Shown: piece after piece, positions 2,565 to 64,000 of the stretch
How the letters are laid out: each line of letters begins with the position of its first letter
Position numbering within the stretch: the stretch's first letter is position 1
Assembly: GCA_964351865.1 (NCBI GenBank)
Contig: CAYGPJ010000014.1
Location: forward strand, 35,556 to 99,555
Source of the DNA: an uncultured Blastochloridaceae bacterium
GTDB lineage: Bacteria; Verrucomicrobiota; Verrucomicrobiia; Methylacidiphilales; JBCBYL01
DNA length: 64,000 bases
Direction of reading: 5' to 3'
Position numbers and translations under genes: made by a program
The notes under the pieces: generated by a model
Told to the model about the DNA's origin: nothing
Seen by the model: only the letters and a program-made list of their open reading frames with translations
Database searches by the model: none

Positions 2565-2894
2565 ATGAGTATATTTTGGCCTTCAGTGAGCAAACGGGAA
2601 TCCATTTGTTATGTGCATATGGTGCTGGCATTTACTCCATTAGCATTCACGCCATTATGGCTTTATCTGCTGGGAGAGGGATGGGTGAAATTTGGGGGAG
2701 GATGTAAGGATGTGGTTCTGATCTTGCCGTATATGATCTGGGCTTTGTTTTTTGGATTTTCATCCATGGCGCTGATACTCAAGCGCTGGCCGTTGCGCGC
2801 GTGGTTGATAGTTGCCAACGTGATTGCAATAGCCTCAGTGTTGGTGCCCGGAAAAAGGGGTCAGGTGACGATATTGACAGTTTCAAACCATTGA
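2565..2894 (+). CDS. Hypothetical small membrane protein; 3' end overlaps an inverted copy of the transposon-flanking repeat
   Basis: 109-aa ORF with about 3 hydrophobic segments; last 10 codons are encoded by the 19-bp element 'aaaggggtcaggtgacgat' (2855-2873). No recognisable family. Confidence 0.3.
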   Translation: MSIFWPSVSKRESICYVHMVLAFTPLAFTPLWLYLLGEGWVKFGGGCKDVVLILPYMIWALFFGFSSMALILKRWPLRAWLIVANVIAIASVLVPGKRGQVTILTVSNH

Positions 2895-3017
2895 AGTCGT
2901 CTAATTCGTTGACTGCCATTCGAGTCAATCCCGATCCCGACTGGGTCCGGTGATCTATATTCAATCTGCGGTTGGCTCGGCATAAGTCATATTCAAACTA
3001 AGATGCAAATTCTGTCA

Positions 3018-3068
3018 AGATCGTCACCTGACCCCTTTCTCCAAAGATCGTCACCTGACCCCTTTCTC
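3018..3068 (+). repeat. Perfect 25-bp tandem direct repeat (2 copies, 'aagatcgtcacctgacccctttctc') immediately upstream of transposase remnant; 19-bp inverted copy at 2855-2873
   Basis: Read directly: 3018-3042 and 3044-3068 are identical; the reverse complement of the core occurs at 2855-2873. Confidence 0.85.
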
Positions 3069-3075
3069 GACCCAT

Positions 3076-3831
3076 CTGTATCTTGAAACGCCGCAGGGTA
3101 ATCTCAGCCAAGCGATGAGCTGGCTGCAGACAACGTTCACCATCCGTTACAATCGAAAGAAAAAGCGTGTAGGTCATTTGTTTCAAGGACGCTACAAGGC
3201 TCAATTGGTCGAGGACGATCACTACGGGCAGGAATTGATCGAATACATTCATTTGAATCCAATTCGCAAACGAAAGAACGGTCGGGTGATTCAGTTCGGC
3301 GACTGGGAGCAATTGATAAACTACCCATGGAGCAGTCATTTCCAGTATAGTCGTAGCGAGGAAGATTCACGAGTGCCCGTGAACGTTAAATATTTAAAGT
3401 TCTGGGGAAAAGATGAAACAACCGGACGTGCGGCATACCGCAAAAGCTTGAGGAAGCTGGTGACCAATGACGTTCCAGTGGATCCATTTACTGAAATTCA
3501 GGAAAGTCTGGCGATGGGGAGTAAAGATTTCCTCAAGAAAGCAAAAGAGATGGTGGCCGCCAAATCAGGCAAAACCGAAAAAAAGAAAAAGAAGCGCTGG
3601 CAGGCGGTAGATCGTGAAGCGGAAATTAGAAAACGACTCAATAAAGAACGGATAAACGGGTGATGATCTGGGCATTGGTTAGCCTGGCAGGAGTTTCAGG
3701 GGTGAAGTTGGCAAGTGAATTTGGGTATGGGGACGGCAGTGGAATTTACCGTGTGGTGCAGCGATTGAATAAAAAGGCCCAGCACGATGAAGTGCTGTAT
3801 AAGAAGTTGGAAGCGCTGAAAAATCAGTCAA
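3076..3831 (+). pseudogene. Degenerate COG1943 (RayT / IS200-like Y1) transposase-like gene with C-terminal DnaA_C-like HTH; N-terminally truncated and frameshifted near 3660
   Basis: Frame 1 (to 3663) encodes 'LETPQGNLSQAMSWLQTTFTIRYNRKKKRVGHLFQGRYKAQLVEDDHYGQELIEYIHLNPIRK', the conserved core of the RayT/IS200-like family. The HUH N-terminal part is missing. After a frame change at about 3660 the sequence continues as 'LASEFGYGDGSGIYRVVQRLNKKAQHDEVLYKKLEAL', which resembles a DnaA C-terminal-type HTH. The antisense ORF 2998-3339 is spurious. Confidence 0.6.
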
Positions 3832-3920
3832 GAGTCAAGCCACGACCCCGAAGAAGAGTCAAGCCACGACCCCGAAGAGACCCCGAAGAGAGGTGTAAGA
3901 GTCAAGCCACGACCCCGAAG
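3829..3920 (+). repeat. Three tandem copies of a 20-mer 'gtcaagccacgaccccgaag' (REP-like); fourth copy at 5526-5550
   Basis: Copies at 3832-3851, 3858-3877 and 3901-3920. A variant 'gtcaagcctcgaccccg' sits at 5531-5547. The ORF 3660-3950 that 'encodes' RVKPRPRR repeats is an artefact of this DNA repeat. Confidence 0.8.
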
Positions 3921-3995
3921 AGGTGTAAAGGTATAAAAGTGGTAAGGTAGGAAAGTGGCAGCTCAATGCTAGCTCTCCCGTCATTTACCAATCAG

Positions 3996-5457: not shown

Positions 5458-5745
5458 GTTATTTTACAGGGGAAAAGAAATAGGGGTGGAACAAAAATAG
5501 GTCTGTCCACTAAGTTTCTCAAATGCGTCAAGAGTCAAGCCTCGACCCCGTTGATAAGAGATACAAGATTAGTTTCAAAACAGGGTTCTGACATGAATGG
5601 CATTCTATACACTTCCGGAACTGTCATACGGAATCGATTTGGTTCAGCAAATTCTATGAATTTGAGTGAAAATGAACGACGAAATGCAATTTCATCCTAC
5701 AGAGCTGACGCCAGTGGCGATCGTTACCTATCAGGGAAACCGCTT

Positions 5746-8542: not shown

Positions 8543-8585
8543 ATAAGCGGTAGTCCCCAGTGGGCTGCCGCTTATTTATGTGGTG
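8543..8585 (+). terminator. Putative intrinsic terminator after fasciclin gene
   Basis: Stem 'aagcggtagtcc..gggctgccgctt' followed by 'atttatg'. Confidence 0.4.
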
Positions 8586-8597
8586 GTCGTCTACGGC

Positions 8598-8985
8598 GAG
8601 AGTTGCGTCCAAGTACTTGCCTCTAGAGCGTTTCCGAAATATGTTTTAACATGTAGGGCGAGATTGCATCTCGCCAACTTCCATCCCGGCAAGATGCAAG
8701 CTTTAGGCTGCGCCTAAACTAAACAAGTTAGAAAGTTATTTTGGTCGCGCTATCGCGCTGGGTTTTCTTGCCCTACATCTATTTTCCTCTGTTGATCGTG
8801 TGAGAACTTAATTCGGAAAAGCTCTAGTAGTTCGTTGCACGTCTAAAGACGGGTAGGGCGGTTTGTCTCAAACCGCTTTGGGATACGATACCAAATATGA
8901 TATAGAACCCGAAACGGAAACCAGCGCCTTGAGACAAGACGCCCTACCATACCCGTCATCCTATGCGCAACGAACTACTAGTACT
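8598..8985. repeat. Mosaic of non-coding hairpin repeats (families A, C, E)
   Basis: 8650-8675 'catgtagggcgagattgcatctcgcc' (also at 21578-21610). 8688-8779 is family C (also 40883-40998 rc and 63667-63794). 8822-8981 is a family A element: 17-bp terminal IR 'ctagtagttcgttgcac', enclosing a 20-bp inner IR 'ggtagggcg..ttgtctcaa / ttgagacaagacgccctacc'. Confidence 0.8.
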
Positions 8986-9048
8986 TCACAAGTCGCAATT
9001 GGTACGTTCACAGAGTTGCGCTGAAGACGGTTCCCGATATGCTACAGC

Positions 9049-10153
9049 CATGTCATCTCCTGAAGACGCGGCTTCGGAACGTATCGACGGCACCCATCAA
9101 TTGGCGGCGGTGATGTTTACGGATGTGGTGGGCTTCAGTTCTCAAACTCATGCGAATGAGGCAGAAACCTTGAAGGCGGTGGCGCGCGACATGCGCCGGA
9201 TTGGTGAAGTGGTGGATAAACACAACGGACGCTTGTTGAAGACAATGGGCGATGGCGTCTTAGCGCATTTTATGTCCGCAACGGATGCCGTCCGGTGCGG
9301 GATTGAATTTCAAACCGCCATGCAAAAGGGGTTTGGCCCGGATCGAGAGAAGAGCCCGTTACAGCATCGGGTGGGGATCCATCTCGGAGATATGTATGTC
9401 TCCGAGTCCGAGGTGATGGGAGATGGAGTGAATATCGCATCGCGACTCCAGACGATTGCAGAGCCGGGAGGTATCTGTGTGTCACAAACGGTCTATGACA
9501 TTATCAAAAACAAGGTCGCACTAAAGGCGACGTCGCTGGGGCCGCAGGAGTTGAAAAATATCTCGCATGCGGTGAATGTGTACAAGATCATCATCGGAGC
9601 GATTGAAGAAGAAATAAAAGTCGAAACCGACGATCCACCGCGGCAGGGATGGATCAGCTCGTTGCCCTGGAAAACGTGGCAGACGAACTGCAGCGGAGAA
9701 GCTCAGAAGTGGATGGAAAGATCCCGGTCGCGCAGTCAAACCAGCTGGTTGTGGTTGAAAAATTTTGTAAAGACGAAGCGGGGCCAATGGATTGCAGGGG
9801 GTTGCGCCTGTTTATTCGTAGTGATTCTGTTGGGTTTAACCGTAGCACCTTGGGAGGGTGAGGCTCCACCGCTCACCAAGCTGACGAACAGTGAAGTGGA
9901 AACTGCCTTGGCGGGGCGCACCGTAAATCAAGGGAGCTTTCTTTTTGTGCCAACCAAAGGTGAAATTCTTCGCAAAAATATTATCGCGTTGACGCATCTG
10001 CAAACCGAATGGAGTCCATCGGCTGAGGTCTACCGCAGCACCTATCGCTTTGTCCTGCGAGTGCGGGCAGGGAGGGAGACGTATCACGCCGTCATTTCGC
10101 ATGATGGTAATCGGAACATTAAAAAAGTTGAGATTTCTGACGAAGAAAAATAA
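9049..10153 (+). CDS. Class III adenylate/guanylate cyclase with C-terminal TM segment and extra domain
   Basis: 'AAVMFTDVVGFS', 'GDGVLAHF', 'RVGIHLGDMYV', 'GDGVNIASRL' cyclase motifs. The ORF-track start at 8963 lies in a repeat, so the ATG at 9049 (MSSPEDA) is preferred. Confidence 0.85.
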
Positions 10154-10236
10154 GAGCAGTGTGAAGTATCAGAGAAGTTAGGAAATGGATTGCAAGAGAT
10201 CCTCGTGGCTCGGTTGGTGATTTGATTCATCGGTGA

Positions 10237-10930
10237 ATGATGTTAATATATTGGATGCATTATTCTAAAAGATCATCGTGTCGAAAGCCTCATCTCAAAC
10301 CAATGCTGCTGGCAGCCTGCATGTTGGCGGGACTAAGCGGAGCGGCATTTGCAGAACTTAGTGGCAAGCAGATTGCGGATGCCCATGGGATGTATCCGCT
10401 ACCGGAATTTGAATCCATTACCTACACCTTCAATGTTCAACTGGGAGAGAAGAATATTCAGCGCACCTGGACCTGGTGGCCGGGACTGAATCAGGTCAAG
10501 GACCACACGGCAGGAATCACCTATCAGCGCGATGAAATGGATCCGCAAGCGATCGAATCGGATAAGAAATTCATTAACGACCACTACTGGTTATTCTTCC
10601 CCTGGCATCTGGCAACGGATCACGGATCACGGATTAACACTCACCAGCAGTATTGAAAAAGAAGCAAGTCCGCTCAAGCGGGAACCATTGCATAAAGTCA
10701 CGGCAGCCTATGATTCGGAATCGGGTTACACCCCCGGTGATGCCTACGACCTGTATCTTGATGCGACTGGGGTGATTCGCGAGTGGATCTTCCGCAAGTC
10801 AGGCCAGGCAGAACCTTCACGGATTACGACGTGGGAAAATGTTCAGCCGATCGGGGGCATGCGCATGGCCTTGGACTTCATCGGCACGGATGGATTTAAA
10901 CTTTGGTTTACGGATGTGTCGGTGAAGTGA
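10237..10930 (+). pseudogene. Secreted hypothetical protein disrupted by 7-bp tandem duplication (gatcacg gatcacg) at about 10607-10620
   Basis: ORFs 10237-10656 and 10532-10930 lie in adjacent frames. Removing one 'gatcacg' copy fuses them into one roughly 230-aa protein (…PWHLATDHGLTLTSSIEKE…). Confidence 0.5.
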
Positions 10931-10992
10931 TATATCCGGCAGAAACTATTCATCAGGTCCTCGATGAGAATCTCCGATTTTCGGGTAATGGT

Positions 10993-11703
10993 TCACTCGC
11001 CGATGGCTACAGGTTTTAGCGTTATATTAGCGTTAATTGAAAACGAATCGACGGTGGTGCTGTAATAGTTAGAACTAACAGCCGCCGTTGAAACGGCGAC
11101 TTCAGGGTGCAGCAGTCTAGCGCCTGCGGGATAAGCTTCATCAACCAAAGGGGTTAAGGTGCCGCTGCGATCTGGCCGCTCCAACGTGCTACTGCCATTT
11201 GCGTAGTAGACCACCACGGCTTGATCGCCCCATGGATTTAAGTCGGCCTGGACCATGTAATCCGTTGAGATATCAGCAAGTTCAGCATAGGCATAGCGAG
11301 AGATCAGTATCGGGAAACTCTTAGCGGACAGTTGGGTTAAGCCTGACACATAGGACCAACCGACCTGATTGGAGGTCAAGGTGGTAGGCTCTGGTTTAGG
11401 TTCGTAACCATGACAACCAAGAACGGCCCTGTCGGTCAGATACTCAAGTGCGAGCAGGTTTTGAAAAATTTCGAGAGAACTGACAGCCGGATCACCCGAA
11501 ATGGCATTGGACAAATAGGCACCTTGATTATCCTGTGCCTGAAGTTGAAAAACCATTCCTAATTGCCTTGCGTGACTACTGTCGCGCATCATTTTGCTTT
11601 TCGTCAGAGCATAATTGACGGCGGGGATCGAAAGTCCGGCGAGGATCCCGATAATTGTAATTACCACCAGCAGCTCAATCAGCGTGAATCCGTTTTTTCG
11701 CAT
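10993..11703 (-). CDS. Prepilin-type N-terminal cleavage/methylation domain protein (pseudopilin-like)
   Basis: 'MRKNGFTLIELLVVITIIGILAGL' class III signal peptide with the G-F-T-L-I-E motif; internal ATG at 11703 preferred over the ORF-track start. Confidence 0.8.
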   Translation of the reverse strand: MRKNGFTLIELLVVITIIGILAGLSIPAVNYALTKSKMMRDSSHARQLGMVFQLQAQDNQGAYLSNAISGDPAVSSLEIFQNLLALEYLTDRAVLGCHGYEPKPEPTTLTSNQVGWSYVSGLTQLSAKSFPILISRYAYAELADISTDYMVQADLNPWGDQAVVVYYANGSSTLERPDRSGTLTPLVDEAYPAGARLLHPEVAVSTAAVSSNYYSTTVDSFSINANITLKPVAIGE

Positions 11704-15834: not shown

Positions 15835-16896
15835 ATGAAACTTGCGCCAATGAATGAAAGTATTTACGCTTTTCCGATGAACCTAGACACCGATGAGATA
15901 CTGAGTTTATCCGGGGGGCGGTTTCAGGACTTTGTCGCTAAGCTGGCACCGGAATATCAACAAGTGGTGCAATCGCACATGGAGAGTCGCATGGCGGATG
16001 CCGGCCAAATCCTGATCAATCAGGGAGAGGATTCTGAATTCACTTTGTTTATAGAAGAAGGGGCGGTTGAGGTGATTGTGGGTGACCCTAAATCCAGGCC
16101 GGTCAGTTATCTGGGGCGAGGAGACGTGGTTGGTGAATTGGGAATGCTGAATCAGCAACCGCGCACGGCCACGATCCGCGCTTCATCCTCCGTGGTGTAT
16201 AAAGTGCTTTATGCGGAGGGTTTTAAACAACTGATGACAGAAGTGCCGGGCTTTGCGATTTTCTTTGCGGGTCGGATGGCCCGCCTGGTGCGTGGCAGTA
16301 AGCCGACGCGCCAGCACAGTTCGATCTGCACGGATCTCGGAGGCAAGCTGCCGAATTTCGATCTGGTGGCAGTGCTTTACACCATCGCTTCCAGCGGCGC
16401 CACCGGGGAACTCTCGGTGATGGATGAAGCAGAGGAGAAAATCGGAAGTTTGTTTATCCGCGAAGGTATCGTGATCTATGGCAAATTCCGGAGTCTGGGA
16501 TCCGTGGAGGCATGTTACCAGATGCTGAGTGAGCAATTAGACGGGTCCTTTTCCTTTAGCCCTGCCAACCAGTTGGCTGCAGATGGTGAGCGGGCATGCA
16601 CCGCGACGATCTCCATCGAGAAATTGATCGAACAAACGTCGATCATTCGTGGAGAGTTGGCGACTTTTCCGGAATCAATCATGAGTCTATCGGGGAGTCT
16701 GCAGATCTTGTCACCTGAGGATCCCGGGGCACCGGCAGATATGAAGCGTCTCAACGAAAAGCTGCTAAAATGTTGTCGCGAGGGGATCACCGACTTGCCG
16801 TCGTTATGGCAACACTCCGGATTATGTCTCTATCACTTTGCTAAATCGGTAAACTACATGTGCACGATCGGCATGGTGAAGTTGGTGAGAGATTGA
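15835..16896 (+). CDS. Cyclic-nucleotide-binding domain protein fused to DUF4388
   Basis: cNMP-binding PBC-like 'GDVVGELGML…PRTATIRA'; C-terminal 'LVAVLYTIASSGATGELSVMDEAEEKIGSLFIREGIVIYGKF…ACYQML' matches the DUF4388 pattern. Confidence 0.7.
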   Translation: MKLAPMNESIYAFPMNLDTDEILSLSGGRFQDFVAKLAPEYQQVVQSHMESRMADAGQILINQGEDSEFTLFIEEGAVEVIVGDPKSRPVSYLGRGDVVGELGMLNQQPRTATIRASSSVVYKVLYAEGFKQLMTEVPGFAIFFAGRMARLVRGSKPTRQHSSICTDLGGKLPNFDLVAVLYTIASSGATGELSVMDEAEEKIGSLFIREGIVIYGKFRSLGSVEACYQMLSEQLDGSFSFSPANQLAADGERACTATISIEKLIEQTSIIRGELATFPESIMSLSGSLQILSPEDPGAPADMKRLNEKLLKCCREGITDLPSLWQHSGLCLYHFAKSVNYMCTIGMVKLVRD

Positions 16897-17070: not shown

Positions 17071-18096
17071 ATGAGTGACCAATGGGATGAGCTTTTGGGA
17101 CCGATGACGGATCGGTTCTCTGATTTTTTTGAACGTCTGGATCCGGAATTTCAAACCCTGATCGAACAGAACAGCGACATCCGTAAACGCGAATCCGGGC
17201 AGATTCTCATTCGGCAGGATGAATCCTCGGATACGGTTTTTGTGATCGAGCAAGGCACGGTGGAGGTTTCGGTGGATATTCCGGATGCTAAAATTTCGCC
17301 CCCGCTGACTTATTTGGGCAAAGGTGATTTTGTGGGAGAAATCGGGGTGCTGACCGATGCCATGCGGACGGCGACGATCAAGGCGGCATCTGAAGTGACG
17401 TTTCGTCAGTTCAGTGATTCTAAATTTAAGATGCTGCTGATTCAGGTGCCGGGCTTGGCGGCCTTCGTGGCGCGCCGCTTAGCACGTCAGGTCACGCACA
17501 CCACCGCCAGTGTTGCCTACAACTCCGCTTGCATGGACTTAAGTGGCAAATTGCCGGAGTTTGATCTCATTTCAGTCTTCTATACCGTTTGCTCCGGTGG
17601 TGGCACGGGCGAGTTAAGAGTGCTGAGTGAACAGAAAGATAATATTGGCATGTTTTTCTTCCGCGATGGTCAGATTGAAAAAGCGCGCTTTCGACATCTC
17701 AACGGACCGGAAGCCTGCCGTCAGATGTTTGCGGAGGGCGAGTTGGTGGGCGCGTTCTCGTATCGCAAGCAGGAAGAATCTTCGGCCCCATTTCCTGCTG
17801 AGGCGAACATGCAGTTATCGATTGATGATTTGCTGATGGATGGAGCACTCATGCGTGACATGTATGAGGGTCTGCCGGATTGGTTAAAGAACCTTGAAGG
17901 CAAAATTCAGTTTTCCTACATGCCGAACGATTTTGAGTCCGATGAGGCGCGGGAGAATGCCGCGATCATCTTTGAAAGCTGCGGCACCCAACCGATGGGA
18001 GTAGCCGATGCATGGGTGATGACCGGCTTGTCGCACGTTCCCTTTGCGCAAGGGATTCAGGCGCTGGAAGCGCTGGATGCACTTCAGCGGAGCTAA
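17071..18096 (+). CDS. Cyclic-nucleotide-binding domain protein fused to DUF4388 (paralog of 15835-16896)
   Basis: 'GDFVGEIGVLTDAMRTATIKA' and 'LISVFYTVCSGGGTGELRVL…GMFFFRDGQIEKARF'; clearly paralogous to the upstream gene. Confidence 0.7.
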   Translation: MSDQWDELLGPMTDRFSDFFERLDPEFQTLIEQNSDIRKRESGQILIRQDESSDTVFVIEQGTVEVSVDIPDAKISPPLTYLGKGDFVGEIGVLTDAMRTATIKAASEVTFRQFSDSKFKMLLIQVPGLAAFVARRLARQVTHTTASVAYNSACMDLSGKLPEFDLISVFYTVCSGGGTGELRVLSEQKDNIGMFFFRDGQIEKARFRHLNGPEACRQMFAEGELVGAFSYRKQEESSAPFPAEANMQLSIDDLLMDGALMRDMYEGLPDWLKNLEGKIQFSYMPNDFESDEARENAAIIFESCGTQPMGVADAWVMTGLSHVPFAQGIQALEALDALQRS

Positions 18097-18892: not shown

Positions 18893-18996
18893 GTATTACG
18901 TGGTGAGATCACCAAGCATACAGTCATGCAACTGTCTGAACGGAGTAACAGCTTTGCCTCGATGGTTGCGATTGTGGATCAGTCGTCTGAATAATC

Positions 18997-19347
18997 TAGT
19001 AGCAGTTCATTGCACATACTTTGACGAATAAGGTGGGGCGTCTTGTCCCAAGGCGCCGGGTTCTACCTCCCGACCACACAGGGTGTCGGCATCGGCACGT
19101 TGGGGATCCCGCGGCCGCGCATACATATCAACATAAGAGGTATAAAACGATATTTAGAGGTCGTATTTCAACAGAGAGCTGAGGTAGTGCGCTTTGTCCT
19201 CAAAGCGCTGGGTGGTCACTACGGGAAAGCGGTTTGGTCCCGACACCCTGCGTGGTCGGGAGCCCTACCTTTGTCATATTCCATATGTTGATGCATAAGC
19301 GCGGCCGCGTGACCCTACCTCTCACTACAGATGCAATGAACTACTTG
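18997..19347. repeat. Family A mosaic repeat element (about 350 bp, non-coding)
   Basis: Terminal IRs 'ctagtagcagttcattgcac' (18997-19016) and 'tgcaatgaactact' (19332-19345). The interior holds 'ggggcgtcttgtcccaaggcgcc' hairpin modules shared with 26266-26620 and 27764-27903. Confidence 0.8.
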
Positions 19348-21194: not shown

Positions 21195-21235
21195 CCGCAG
21201 GGGGCATCGATCATTCGGTGCCCCCTGTTTTTTTT
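21195..21235 (+). terminator. Rho-independent terminator after cspA
   Basis: 'cagggggcatcgatcattcggtgccccctg' stem followed by T8. Confidence 0.8.
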
Positions 21236-21290
21236 GCCCGCATTTAGAGCATTTTCGAATGGTGTTCTAACACTGATTCAGGTGGCCCAC

Positions 21291-21612
21291 GATAGGGGAC
21301 GGAGTAATATTTTCCGTGCAAGTGGTATAGGTCCTATGAAAGCAGGGTGGCAGGAAAAAATTACTCCGTCCCCTATCGTTCAGCGATTTGCTGAATTAAT
21401 ACTGAATGTCGCAGATATGCGATTTTATCGGAGCCAGATCTTCAGAGAAAAGACTTTCGCGTATTTCGCGGTTAATTTATTTCTGGAAAAATGGCTCAGT
21501 TCTTTTAACGGGGATAAGAGGGCAGGACTTATAGCGTTTCCGAATTAAGTTCTCACACGGTGACCTGATTAAAATACATGTAGAGCAAGATTGCATCTCG
21601 CCCTACATGTTT
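21291..21612. repeat. Family D and family E repeat elements
   Basis: 18-bp perfect IR 'gataggggacggagtaat…attactccgtcccctatc' (21291-21377). 21536-21612 'agcgtttccgaattaagttctcacac…catgtagagcaagattgcatctcgccctacatg' matches 8627-8675 and rc of 8785-8815. The region 21360-21450 recurs inverted at 63850-63968. ORF 21234-21548 is spurious. Confidence 0.8.
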
Positions 21613-21681
21613 GAACATCATTCGAAAACGCTCTCAATCTTCAATGTATCACGTGATACATTGAAGATTGGCGCGGTGATA

Positions 21682-26265: not shown

Positions 26266-26620
26266 ATGAGTAGTTCATTCGGGCTGTAGAGAGGGGTAGG
26301 GTTCCTCGGTCGCGGTATCCCCAAGCGCCGATCCCGACACCATGTGTGAGCGGAGGTCGAATCGGCGCCTTGGGACCCGTCGCCGCTAAGGCTATGCCGA
26401 GGCAAGCAAGACGCCCTACCTAGGCGTTTCGCAATTTATTTGCCGCACGGTTTGGTAATGCGTCGGTAAGAAATCCTACGGATATTCTCACCCTACACGG
26501 GGAAAATGTAGGACGAGAATGTCCGGCTGTTGCCGGACTTCTTGTCAAACGCCTTGATCATTGCGGCAGATTAATTAGATACCGCTCTAATCGTCAAAGT
26601 ATGTGCAATGGACTACTAGA
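26266..26620. repeat. Family A mosaic repeat element
   Basis: Termini 'gagtagttcattc' / 'gcaatggactactag'; inner 'gggtagggttcc…ggcgccttgggacccg…caagacgccctacc' hairpins. Confidence 0.8.
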
Positions 26621-26677
26621 AGTCGTTTCCTGATGGCTTTGCGTTGAACTGTGGCAATCAAGCGATAGTTTAATGGC

Positions 26678-27742
26678 ATGCTGGTTCGCCTGATCCTAGA
26701 TAATTTCCGCTGCCATCCGCAGTTGGATCTGCGTGATCTGGGTCAGTGCAATGTGCTGACCGGTGCCAATGGGCGGGGCAAGACTTCATTGCTGGAGGCG
26801 GTTTTTCTGATTTCGCGCTGTCGTTCCTTCCGCACTCACCGCACCAAAGAATGTGCCGGTTGGGGTCGCAGTTCATTTGGAGTGGCCGGACGCATGGCAC
26901 AGGAAGTGAACGGCGCGGTACGGCTCAAATATGAATGGACGCGTGCCGGACGGCAGCTCAGCACGGATCAGGAATCCAACCTGAAACTCAAAGCGTTTTG
27001 GGGGTTGCTGCAGGCGGTGGCGATTACGAATCAGGACCGTCAACTGGTTACCGAAAGTGGACGCTATCGGCGCAACTGGATTGATAGTCTGATCGCAGCC
27101 ACTGATCACGAGTATCTGGAGCTTTCCCAGAAAGCATTGCTGTTGCAGCGACAGAAGAGTGCCCTGTTGAAAAGTGAAAAGACGGATCGCACGCTCTGGA
27201 AGATTTTGACGGATCAGATGCGCCCGATTTGCTCGCAAATGGTGGCGGCACGCGACGTCATGACGGAGCGAATGGCGCCAGAGATCGAAGCTCACTACCG
27301 CGAACTGACCGGGCAACAGGAGCAAGTGGGCTTTGCCTGCAACGGGGAGACGGCGAAACGCTTGAGTCGCGACGAAGCAGAACTTTGGCAAGCCGAGCAG
27401 AAGAGTCGGAATTGTGAACTGGGGCCGCATCGGGATGATTGGGATCTGACCTTGCAGAATAAACCGTTGCGGCATTTTGGTTCGGAAGGCCAGCAGAAAT
27501 CAGCGGCATTGGCCATGCGGCTGGCGGAGTTGAAACTGGATACCACCACCAATCCTGGTCGCACGGTGGTGCTGATCGATGATGCGCTGATTGAACTGGA
27601 TGCCGGACGCCGTGAGCGCTTCTGGCAACAGGTGCCGGCCGGGGTGCAGATTCTCTACGCCACGACGGACGCCAGTCGCGATAAAGTCTTTCGGGAATTC
27701 GACCGAGTGTTACAAGTCGAGCCCGGCGAGGTTCGATTGTAG
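26678..27742 (+). CDS. recF: DNA replication and repair protein RecF
   Basis: Walker A 'GANGRGKTSLLEA', signature 'GPHRDD', ABC-like 'SEGQQK', Walker B 'LIDD'. Confidence 0.9.
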   Translation: MLVRLILDNFRCHPQLDLRDLGQCNVLTGANGRGKTSLLEAVFLISRCRSFRTHRTKECAGWGRSSFGVAGRMAQEVNGAVRLKYEWTRAGRQLSTDQESNLKLKAFWGLLQAVAITNQDRQLVTESGRYRRNWIDSLIAATDHEYLELSQKALLLQRQKSALLKSEKTDRTLWKILTDQMRPICSQMVAARDVMTERMAPEIEAHYRELTGQQEQVGFACNGETAKRLSRDEAELWQAEQKSRNCELGPHRDDWDLTLQNKPLRHFGSEGQQKSAALAMRLAELKLDTTTNPGRTVVLIDDALIELDAGRRERFWQQVPAGVQILYATTDASRDKVFREFDRVLQVEPGEVRL

Positions 27743-27763
27743 CAGCGGCTGCCTTCAGCGATT

Positions 27764-27995
27764 ACTAGTAGTTCATTGGATGTGTAGTGAGGGGTAGGGC
27801 GTGTTGTCCCCAACGCGCCGAGGCGTAGCTTGGTGAACCCGGCACCTTGGGACAAGACGCCCTACCTTAATCCTCAAAGGTTTTGTAATGCACTAATAGT
27901 AGACCGTGCAAGACGATATGACGGGAATTGCAGGCCGAGATTGGATCTTGTCGCATTCACCAATCGCTTTCACAACCGGCAAGATACAATCTTAC
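27764..27995. repeat. Family A element (27764-27903) followed by family B element (27896-27995; second copy 40839-40885)
   Basis: 'actagtagttcattgg…gggtagggcgtgttgtcccc…ccttgggacaagacgccctacc…aatgcactaatagtag'; then 'tagtagaccgtgcaagacgatatgacgggaattgcaggccgaga', shared with 40839-40882. Confidence 0.8.
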
Positions 27996-28020
27996 CCTAC
28001 AGTCGGAAAAACTGATGGAA

Positions 28021-35103: not shown

Positions 35104-35877
35104 TTAGCGGGTGGCTTGATAATTCTCCAGATTATGATGTGTCGGTTCAAGCCGGGAAAGTGGGCTGACGCGAAAATGGTGTTGCTCGAGCAGGCACTTT
35201 ACGGCTGAAGCAGGATCCTTGCTATCTTCAAAAATAATCGAGTGCAGCGTGTCCCCGGCTAACAGAGAGGTAAGACCCGCGAGCACTTGAGCTTCATGAC
35301 CCTCGACATCAATTTTGATGACATGGGGCGGCGCGGCCTGACCCCTGCTGATCAAATAGTCTCCGCTGAATGTCGACACTTGAATAGCTTCCAGCGTGGC
35401 GTCGTTCTCCCAATTGTGAAGCCCGTTGCGACCGGCATTGCCTGGGTGGCGGTAAAAGTCGGCGGTTCCATTTTCAGCGTCCAGCGCGATTTGGTGTAAG
35501 TCAATTTCCAGTCGATTGTGATCCGCGGCTTTACTGATGAGCTGTGCCATTGCTGGATTGGGTTCAAAGGCATAAACCGTTGAATCGGGGAAATGTGATT
35601 TGATGGTCAGCGAGTGAATTCCGAGGTTGGCACCGATGTCCCAGAATACCTGACCCGGGCAGAGAGCAGATTCGATGGCCTGCAAAACTTCCTGTTCATA
35701 GTAACCATACTGGATGATGCGGTGGTCAATATACTCGAAAGGATCCAGGAAGAGGCGGATCTGATGACTGGTGTTAACTTCGATTCTGCGTCCTCGGCAG
35801 CAAATGCTGTGAAAGCGGGTGGCGCCGCGGAGTCGCTTACGATAGAGAAATGCAGAAATTCGATCAGAGAGTTTCAT
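35104..35877 (-). CDS. FkbM-family SAM-dependent methyltransferase
   Basis: 'VFWDIGANLGIHS…VYAFEPNP' FkbM motif. Confidence 0.8.
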   Translation of the reverse strand: MKLSDRISAFLYRKRLRGATRFHSICCRGRRIEVNTSHQIRLFLDPFEYIDHRIIQYGYYEQEVLQAIESALCPGQVFWDIGANLGIHSLTIKSHFPDSTVYAFEPNPAMAQLISKAADHNRLEIDLHQIALDAENGTADFYRHPGNAGRNGLHNWENDATLEAIQVSTFSGDYLISRGQAAPPHVIKIDVEGHEAQVLAGLTSLLAGDTLHSIIFEDSKDPASAVKCLLEQHHFRVSPLSRLEPTHHNLENYQATR

Positions 35878-40834: not shown

Positions 40835-40998
40835 TAGTAGACCGTGCAACATGATATGACAGGAACTGTAGGCCGAGAAAACCCAGCGCGATAGCGCGGC
40901 CAAAAAAATAATTTCTAACTTGTTTAGTTTAGGCGTAGCCTAAAGCTTGCATCTCGGCTCCTTCTAAACTGTCGAGATGCAATCTCGACCTACATTTT
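40835..40998. repeat. Family B + family C repeat elements (reverse orientation)
   Basis: 'tagtagaccgtgcaacatgatatgacaggaactgtaggccgaga' followed by the reverse complement of family C 'gcaagctttaggc…cgcgctatcgcgctggg'. Confidence 0.8.
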
Positions 40999-63655: not shown

Positions 63656-63666
63656 TCGGGGACTCT

Positions 63667-63968
63667 AGGGCAAGATAGCATCTTGCCGGAATGATCATTG
63701 GCGAGATGCAAGCTTTAGGCTACGCCTAAACTAAACGAGTTAGAAATCATTGGTATTCTCCGCGCTATCGCGCTGGGTTTTCTCGCCCTACATGACCATC
63801 TCCTGTTGGCGAAACATGTTGAGCGAATCGTATGATAGCTGACGCATCCAATAGATGAAGCGCCGCAACTCCGAAAGGATTCGCGAGAGATCTCCGATAA
63901 AATCGCGAGTCTGCGAAATGCTGCATCGACTTACCAAAGCGCTGAACGCTAGGGGACGGAGTAATTTT
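63667..63968. repeat. Family C (63667-63794) and inverted family D (63850-63968) repeat elements
   Basis: 'ggcaagatagcatcttgcc…gcgagatgcaagctttaggctacgcctaaactaaacgagttagaaa…cgcgctatcgcgctgggttttctcgccctacat'; 'tccgataaaatcgcgagtctgcg…cgctgaacgctaggggacggagtaa' is the reverse complement of 21360-21440. Confidence 0.8.
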
Positions 63969-64000
63969 TTCCTACCATCCCGTTTTCAAAAGGCCAATAC

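Follow-up and report, generated by a model that had tools for sequence, protein, structure and literature searches.

Four Dispersed Elements in the Intergenic Spacers of the Locus

The 64-kb window analyzed here, that is, the whole stretch of 64,000 nucleotides at positions 35,556 to 99,555 of contig CAYGPJ010000014.1 (assembly GCA_964351865.1), comes from an uncultured bacterium that GTDB places in the Methylacidiphilales (Verrucomicrobiota), and it holds four dispersed noncoding copies of a small palindromic repeat that we call family A: A1 (8824-8981), A2 (18996-19347), A3 (26267-26619), and A4 (27765-27899). By Pfam assignment, A1 lies between a fasciclin and an adenylate/guanylate cyclase gene, A2 between a glutaminyl cyclase and a DEAD helicase gene, A3 between a small open reading frame (ORF) and recF, and A4 between the convergent recF and SASA esterase genes; all four copies are thus intergenic, between genes with credible Pfam assignments, and some begin just past a stop codon. 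An earlier examination of the letters without database searches (hereafter, the sequence-only reading) had placed four loci resembling miniature inverted-repeat transposable elements (MITEs) within a few bases of these positions and had described them as always intergenic, and both statements hold. The interval under which it filed this family, 8598-8985, is composite: 8824-8981 is indeed family A, whereas 8623-8827 belongs to a second family, B, and the two elements abut through a CTAG (8824-8827) common to both. On the other side of A1, the longest ORF of the cyclase gene begins at 8963, within the right terminal repeat of the element, and its Pfam domain starts at residue 45; an in-frame ATG around 9051 is the more likely start, so that automated annotation may extend this gene into the repeat (8963-9050).

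The ends of family A are of the CTAGTAGTTCATTGCAC type and its hairpins of the form GGTAGGGCG…CGCCCTACC, both far over chance, as the sequence-only reading had proposed when it described terminal inverted repeats (TIRs) and hairpin modules. Allowing up to three mismatches, the 17-mer CTAGTAGTTCATTGCAC has six matches in the window where 0.16 are expected, and all six fall at element ends, where they agree with the 17-mer to within two mismatches; the other two of the eight ends (A3 left, A4 right) are more degenerate, still alignable. The hairpin module GGGACAAGACGCCCTACC has five matches against 0.03 expected, and the pattern GGTAGGGCGnnTTGTCyC(n)AAnnyGC four against none. In a self-BLAST of the window, similarity ends at the element borders and the flanks of the copies are unrelated to each other, from which it follows that these are dispersed repeats, as had been claimed, and that segmental duplication can be set aside. 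A known structured RNA was likewise ruled out, since Rfam at gathering thresholds had no match anywhere in the window and ARAGORN found no tRNA or tmRNA.

Inverted REP Hairpins as the Core of the Elements

The internal hairpin of family A is a classic repetitive extragenic palindrome (REP), made of a GTAG tag followed by a GC-rich 8-bp stem that closes a loop of 3-4 nt. What the sequence-only reading had taken for 20-bp inverted repeats are individually self-complementary stem-loops, each with its own 5' GTAG tag, of the form GGTAG-G-GCGnnTTG-(TCC/TCCC/TCT)-CAAnnCGC-C. At least five modules of the window have the 8-bp stem and 3-4-nt loop, and the GGTAGGG tag precedes every intact module, one copy being mutated to GGTGGGG. 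Four different compensated stems are present (GCGGTTTG/CAAACCGC, GCGTCTTG/CAAGGCGC, GCGTGTTG/CAACGCGC, and GCGCTTTG/CAAAGCGC), in which two variable positions change together (GT/AC, TC/GG, TG/CG, CT/AG). Overall, sites combining GTAG with a hairpin number 19 in the window, versus 4.0 ± 1.5 in shuffles, and the surplus consists of A-type and B-type modules; by our count, the 64 kb holds about nine A-type and about eight B-type REPs or REP remnants.

In A1 and A4, two such REPs face each other in inverted orientation with their tags outward, separated by spacers of 47 and 23 nt, respectively, and these two elements are REPIN-like doublets (a REPIN being a hairpin-forming pair of REPs). A1 is a complete unit of 158 bp with CTAG at both bounds, which reads left (L) arm, REP, spacer, inverted REP, and right (R) arm. 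Its left terminal repeat CTAGTAGTTCGTTGCAC (8824-8840, plus strand) is followed by the left REP GGTAG-G-GCGGTTTG-TCT-CAAACCGC, with a perfect 8-bp stem (8852-8876, plus strand); its right REP GGTAGGGCGTCTTGTCTCAAGGCGC (8924-8948, minus strand) completes the tags-out, or "HH," dimer, and its right terminal repeat CTAGTAGTTCGTTGCGC (8965-8981, minus strand) shares an A-to-G change with the left one. A4, a complete unit of 135 bp, has its REPs at 27793-27818 (plus strand) and 27842-27866 (minus strand) and its terminal repeats at 27765-27781 and 27885-27899. Each REP of A1 and A4 is bordered by a 22-27-nt arm ending in CTAGTAG, and with arms flanking both REPs the whole 135-160-bp unit is able to fold as one long hairpin of single-stranded DNA (ssDNA). 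Indeed, the predicted ssDNA fold is a single long hairpin for both A1 (-42.4 kcal/mol, z = -9.2) and A4 (-30.9 kcal/mol, z = -5.7), and in neither case does any shuffle fold equally well.

When the eight arms are aligned, they fall into two types, of which each element has one of each, in fixed register with the REP tag: the L arm, CTAGTAGTTCATTG…TGTAGTGAGG-GGTAGGG, where the CTAG-to-GTAG distance is 29 nt, and the R arm, CTAGTAGTTCATTGCACATACTTTGACGAATAA-GGTAGGGCGTCTTGTCCCAAGGCGCC, where it is 34 nt. This alignment also clarifies A2 and A3, which at about 350 bp represent the 135-160-bp unit in rearranged or nested form. A2 (352 bp) has the opposite orientation to the three other copies, with its R arm on the left and its L arm on the right, and its interior is longer by about 240 bp of palindromic modules. 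Its R-arm REP has a mutated tag (GGTGGGGCGTCTTGTCCCAAGGCGCC, 19032-19057, plus strand), an additional internal REP displays a third stem variant with a perfect 8-bp stem (GGTAGTGCGCTTTGTCCTCAAAGCGC, 19183-19208, plus strand), and on the minus strand the L arm presents its GGTAGGG tag (19313-19319), followed by the palindrome CGCGGCCGCG, and its terminal repeat CAAGTAGTTCATTGCAT (19331-19347). In A3 (353 bp), the L arm and its REP are degenerate (tag at 26295-26301), and of the R-arm REP a remnant is left, ending in CCCTACC at 26420; directly past it, the R arm, whose terminal repeat lies at 26603-26619, is split by a nested insertion of about 165 bp (26421-26586), palindromic and with B-like GTAG hairpins.

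Family B, to which most of the remaining small repeats detected in the window belong, has TIRs of the form CTAGAGCGTTTCCGAA or TAGTAGACCGTGCAA and a different REP, TGTAGGGCGAGAT-TGC-ATCTCGCC. Despite the different REP stems, A and B have in common their CTAG(TAG) ends, the arm motif ATGACGGG, and a GTAGG tag in register, the TAGTAGACC-type arm of B aligning with the R arm of A as TAGTAG … ATGACGGG-A-nn-GTAGG. This homologous, in-register arm, together with the shared ends, makes A and B variants of one architecture differing in their REP stem.

The REP Module and RAYT Genes in Other Organisms

A metagenome scan with a 26-nt pattern of the family A REP that allowed any base at four stem positions recovered the module in at least 120 contigs from varied samples. 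Both free stem pairs are Watson-Crick in 121 of 132 matches with distinct contexts (92%, where chance would give about 6%), through eight different dinucleotide combinations. Such compensatory changes amount to strong covariation among the metagenome copies and imply that selection acts on the hairpin as such. Conservation in the REP is highest in the loop and upper stem (TTG-TCCC-CAA), and it is the lower stem that covaries.

In five metagenome loci (one of them, L015, with a partial gene) and one Prosthecobacter contig, a gene for a REP-associated tyrosine transposase (RAYT) lies beside the REP or is flanked by it. A first tblastn, seeded with RAYT sequences drawn up by ourselves, pointed to genes adjoining the REPs at several loci and served as a lead only; the assignment relies on the NCBIfam model NF047646 (REP_Tyr_transpos, "REP-associated tyrosine transposase," cutoff 80 bits), on which four genes score 80-92.5 bits, namely L033 1296-1757, L075 1458-2006, L081 1100-1552, and L030 528-1001. 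All four products contain the HUH motif (PDHxHxL) as well as WQxxFxxH and YIxxNPVRxGL, three of the four also have weak Pfam Y1_Tnp matches, and their pairwise identity is 41-52%. The L033 gene sits between two REP doublets and the L075 gene among three REPs. On the Prosthecobacter contig (L130), a gene that NCBI itself names "REP-associated tyrosine transposase" has GGTAGGGCGGCTTGTCC(T/C)CAAGCC(G/A)CC on both sides. A profile search gave this RAYT clade at least 5831 members, the named ones including Prosthecobacter, Cephaloticoccus, Nibricoccus, and Opitutaceae, all of which belong to Verrucomicrobiota. Since the conserved core of family A consists of inverted, GTAG-tagged REP hairpins that flank RAYT genes elsewhere, the family appears to belong to a known class of small bacterial repeats.

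In Nibricoccus, REPs flanking the RAYT gene keep the GGTAGGG tag and their stems differ. One contig of a Nibricoccus sp. metagenome-assembled genome (MAG), L129, places the RAYT gene within a regular array (9650-11000) in which the REPs GGTAGGGACGGCCAGCCTTGGCCGTCC and GGTAGGGTCGGACCGCCGGGCCGACC alternate with a period of about 190 bp, a cluster similar to the bacterial interspersed mosaic elements (BIMEs), again with the GGTAGGG tag and other stems.

Absence of Family A from the Spacers of Relatives

The names borne by homologues of its RecF place the source of the window among uncultured Verrucomicrobiota. Relatives whose RecF is 82-88% identical to that of the window keep the gene order GTPase, DEAD helicase, (SulP), recF, SASA, ArsC, which makes two spacers comparable. 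The recF-SASA spacer measures 278 bp in the window versus 13-54 bp in the relatives, the SulP-recF spacer 1296 bp versus 185 bp, and the contigs of these relatives contain no family A sequence. In the window the unit, arms included, recurs in constant register at four sites unrelated to each other; in the relatives it is absent at two orthologous ones. In the 88% relative, a B-type REP (TGTAGGTCGAGATTGAATCTCGAC) directly follows recF, matching the position of the B doublet next to A4, which makes B the older of the two at that site, A4 having been added later in the lineage of the window. The one other public contig with exactly this RecF, 1270 bp long and from a short-read (Logan) assembly of the same organism (L001), corresponds to window positions 26543-27812, its bounds falling within A3 and within the left REP of A4; the repeats thus probably break short-read assemblies around recF, and the breaks on both sides of this gene give a hint of multicopy repeats.

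These comparisons bear on the possibility that the elements are immobile hairpins selected by the host, as 3'-end stabilizers, terminators, or protein-binding sites, which would have spread by recombination or arisen in place. Their strictly intergenic location, in some cases directly past a stop codon, and their strong predicted structures would fit such functions, which the REP literature does describe. However, the corresponding spacers of relatives with conserved gene order lack the elements, and the occurrence of copies in both orientations, their nesting, and their unrelated flanks are difficult to reconcile with immobility. As for transcription termination, which the sequence-only reading had considered for these hairpins, no T-run follows the REP hairpins, with the exception of a weak tail after 8943-8923 (minus strand), and terminator-like sites are not clearly enriched in the window (26 versus 18.6 ± 3.9 in shuffles). 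Moreover, a separate terminator-like hairpin with a T-rich tail is found at 8559-8572, between the fasciclin stop codon and the B1/A1 pair of elements. A terminator role was rejected on these grounds, and we regard immobility in general as very improbable.

Proposed Mobilization by a RAYT or, Less Probably, by a DDE Transposase

Taken with the REP anatomy and the linkage to RAYT genes elsewhere, the foregoing leads us to propose that family A is a REP/REPIN-type repeat of Verrucomicrobiota mobilized by a RAYT, a reading based on sequence comparison to which we give a probability of roughly 0.65. Under this model, the units would be mobilized in trans by a RAYT, an HUH/Y1 enzyme from the IS200/IS605 superfamily, whose gene would lie in another part of the genome. 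The enzyme would bind the folded REP on ssDNA, use the GTAG tag to select CT cleavage sites, and cut and rejoin the DNA there, so that the CT/AG found at six of the eight unit ends (the slash marking the cut) would represent candidate cleavage sites. In characterized systems, RAYTs do bind the folded REP on ssDNA and cleave at CT 5' and 3' of it, the site being chosen through the AG of GTAG (PMC8266576), and hairpin-forming REP doublets are the replicating unit (PMC3116915). A2 and A3 would then be units that were rearranged or hit by nested insertions of related palindromic elements, and family B would follow the same architecture, with a homologous arm and a different REP stem. We infer, by this analogy, that a RAYT of this genome moves family A units and cleaves at their terminal CT, and any effect of the elements on the transcripts of neighboring genes would be a conjecture of the same order.

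The outer arms are where a different enzyme must be considered. Outside the window, the TIR shell was seen in one place, the 1270-bp short-read contig mentioned above, and the family A terminal repeat is present in none of the at least 120 metagenome contigs; most REP doublets elsewhere lack an outer inverted repeat altogether, which indicates that the shell is neither a general requirement of RAYTs nor attributable to this REP clade at large. A and B could accordingly be classical TIR-type MITEs, in which a DDE transposase resembling those of the insertion sequences (ISs) IS630 or IS5 reads the 17-bp ends, inserts at CTAG, and duplicates TA or CTAG, the REPs being passengers or secondary insertions. 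CTAG is the target of IS630, which duplicates TA, and the ends of IS5-family elements often begin with GAG…CCGAAA, as does the TIR of family B. Clear TIRs and a genome-specific shell around REP doublets that elsewhere usually do without it favor this reading, and a size of 135-355 bp and nested insertions are typical of MITEs; in addition, six of the eight ends read C-TA/GTAG…CTAC/TA-G, and one CTAG serves both A1 and B1 where they meet. Yet no IS or transposase with these TIRs was detected in the window (where TIR matches occur at the four elements only), in 120 metagenome loci, or in a scan of a genome collection that does not include the source genome. The passenger model also does not predict that two to three families with unrelated TIRs all carry outward, GTAGG-tagged REPs 22-27 nt from a CTAG(TAG) end, and the compensatory changes in the REP stem imply selection on the hairpin. 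Finally, the CTAG…CTAG that bounds family A can be read as a TA or CTAG duplication, as part of the TIR, or as a CT cleavage site, and as a duplication it is not demonstrable because it is palindromic and always identical. We therefore consider a DDE-driven MITE unlikely. It could also be that the elements are hybrids movable by both a RAYT and a TA-targeting DDE transposase.

Several observations weigh against mobilization by a RAYT. The CTAG at six of the eight ends is equally expected from a DDE transposase that duplicates TA or CTAG, and the bare doublets of other organisms depart from the armed units described here. No RAYT of this clade was found in the 64-kb window, either by tblastn with the four RAYTs or with a hidden Markov model (HMM) of 120 RAYTs; the sole Y1-like sequence there is a 5'-truncated gene of another subtype (3055-3663), which gives a weak match. 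The combination of the TIR with GGTAGGGCG had one match in the genome-collection scan, in a Bdellovibrionales MAG, which we take as a chance occurrence since no element lies there. With four copies in view, the copy number and exact ends of family A are poorly defined. No precise empty site could be aligned in the relatives with 82-88% identical RecF, whose intergenic DNA is too diverged to place one to the base.

On balance, what the sequence-only reading had called a nonautonomous mobile repeat family is dispersed, noncoding, palindromic, probably nonautonomous and mobile, and absent from the orthologous spacers of relatives; its framing around TIRs, to be matched by a transposase with the same ends, is not supported, in that the internal GTAG hairpin is what other organisms share and the TIR shell was seen in this genome only. 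On the RAYT reading, A and B are better annotated as REP/REPIN-type elements than as orphan MITEs. A further, more doubtful proposal is that the REP doublets have here acquired fixed outer arms (CTAGTAG, about 22-27 nt with ATGACGGG, then GGTAGGG), common to at least two families, which would mark true mobile termini at CT/AG. If so, the element would be a "complete" REPIN, its CTAG target and the sites of cleavage and joining being legible in the sequence, and a natural substrate for the study of REPIN excision and insertion; were the CT/AG ends real cleavage sites, they would provide defined termini for work on REPIN mobility. The covariation of the lower stem under a kept loop and upper stem, across RAYTs that are 41-52% identical, may in turn offer a natural mutational map of the recognition of REPs by this RAYT clade. 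Apart from the termini and this recognition map, the finding is an ordinary one.

Family B and Other Repeats of the Window

The family B copy that abuts A1 (B1, 8623-8827) has the TIRs CTAGAGCGTTTCCGAA and TTCGGAAAAGCTCTAG and a REP of the form TGTAGGGCGAGATTGCATCTCGCC; the REP itself, GTAGGGCGAGAT-TGC-ATCTCGCC, lies at 8653-8675 and its partner has a CCCTACA tag at about 8771-8777. A B-type doublet abuts A4 (27897-28001); when its outer arm TAGTAGACCGTGCAAGACGATATGACGGGAAT is aligned to the R arm of family A, the two are in register. At 21530-21634, a minimal B element consists of TIRs around one palindrome tagged at both ends, TGTAGAGCAAGAT-TGC-ATCTCGCCCTACA. Two more copies are located at 40835-40998, in reverse orientation and with a TAGTAGACCGTGCAA outer arm, and at 63661-63793. 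A solitary B-type terminal repeat (TAGAGCATTTTCGAATGG…, 21245-21272) lies directly past a strong terminator-like hairpin with a T-run (21197-21228) and abuts a third type of repeat, family C. The latter, at 21289-21433 and 63892-64000, has a 27-nt near-perfect hairpin, ACGATAGGGGACGGAGTAATATTTTCC / GGAAAAAATTACTCCGTCCCCTATCGT, and a 109-nt segment that recurs inverted at the end of the window; pieces of family B adjoin both C loci.

The truncated Y1-like gene at 3055-3663 (IS200-like or RAYT-like) contains GHLFQGRYK…YIHLNPI…YPWSS and lacks the HUH motif; its NF047646 score is 35.7 bits, for model positions 60-143. An inverted repeat, (GGAAAAA)GGGGTCAGGTGACGAT…, stands upstream of it in three copies (2850-2880, 3012-3042, 3044-3068); this repeat contains GGGGTCAG, which fits the GGGGWSAS motif that Di Nocera et al. 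(PMC3733652) report in TIRs flanking "TIRYT" genes; the region 2850-3663 looks like a decayed TIRtron. Just downstream, tandem AAGAGTCAAGCCACGACCCCGAAG repeats of 24-43 nt (3830-3930), with a fourth related copy 1.6 kb away (5530-5563), fall in a small ORF encoding RVKPRPRR repeats. Lastly, two similar stretches of about 530 bp (15943-16467 and 17137-17670) lie in the neighboring ORFs 15835-16896 and 17071-18096; these are probably paralogs in tandem and have no relation to the repeat families.

Comparison with Known Systems

The bacterial TIR-type MITEs (Correia/NEMIS, RUP, Nezha, and those derived from IS630 or IS5) resemble family A by their size (135-355 bp in the latter), TIRs, noncoding nature, intergenic location, and TA/CTAG ends, but family A has no known parent IS, and what other organisms share with it is an internal RAYT-type REP rather than the TIR. 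The BIMEs of Escherichia coli are likewise mosaics, in which REPs alternate in orientation and the linkers carry conserved motifs, and their clustering and nesting recall A2, A3, and the B1-A1 junction; they differ in having bulged-stem REPs (group 2) and linkers that bind integration host factor (IHF) and similar proteins.

Closer in taxonomy are the GTAG REPs reported in the Planctomycetes-Verrucomicrobia-Chlamydiae (PVC) superphylum, including Opitutus terrae; the same survey describes dimers with tags outside ("HH") as predominant and some REP dimers as sitting in longer palindromes that never occur alone (PMC3733652). As presented there, GTAG-17 to -19 of O. terrae share with family A the phylum, a GTAG-tagged GC-rich stem-loop, HH dimers, and the coexistence of several REP families per genome (Di Nocera et al. 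2013, PMC3733652). The peptides encoded by the O. terrae REPs, through which alone the two could be compared, nonetheless indicate a different stem and speak against identity: VGPALAAG, from GTAG-18, would back-translate to about GTAGGGCCGGCGCTTGCCGCCGGC, whereas family A has GTAGGGCG-nn-TTGTCCC-AA-nn-CGCC, with another stem and loop. GTAG-15 of Anabaena variabilis and CGTC-1 of Halothiobacillus neapolitanus, in the same survey, match the shell of family A in that their REP dimers lie inside a longer inverted repeat that is absent without REPs; their shell and REP sequences are unrelated to those of family A, and the text consulted reports no CTAG termini for them (Di Nocera et al. 2013).

With regard to the hairpin itself, group 3 REPtrons, known from Stenotrophomonas maltophilia and Marinomonas, have the same perfect 8-bp stem and a 3-4-nt loop after GTAG, and both the perfect stem and specific loop bases matter in these systems (Corneloup et al. 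2021, PMC8266576). The importance of loop positions there finds a parallel in the loop and upper stem being the most conserved part of the family A REP, and cleavage at CT would be common to both. The group 3 hosts are Gammaproteobacteria, whereas the host of family A belongs to Verrucomicrobiota.

As a whole unit, family A is most readily set beside the REPINs of Pseudomonas fluorescens SBW25 (Bertels and Rainey 2011, PMC3116915), which also consist of two inverted REPs around a poorly conserved spacer, are predicted to fold entirely into an ssDNA hairpin, are extragenic and dispersed, show paired changes on both arms, and are built from a REP type that flanks RAYT genes. Family A departs from them by its extended GGTAGGG tag and TCC(C) loop, by a cognate RAYT that was not located in the 64-kb window, and by an extra conserved arm of about 22-27 nt outside each REP, ending in CTAGTAG, with L and R arms that can be told apart. 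What it would add to these systems is a REP/REPIN member with unusually extended, CTAG-terminated arms, common to its sister family B.

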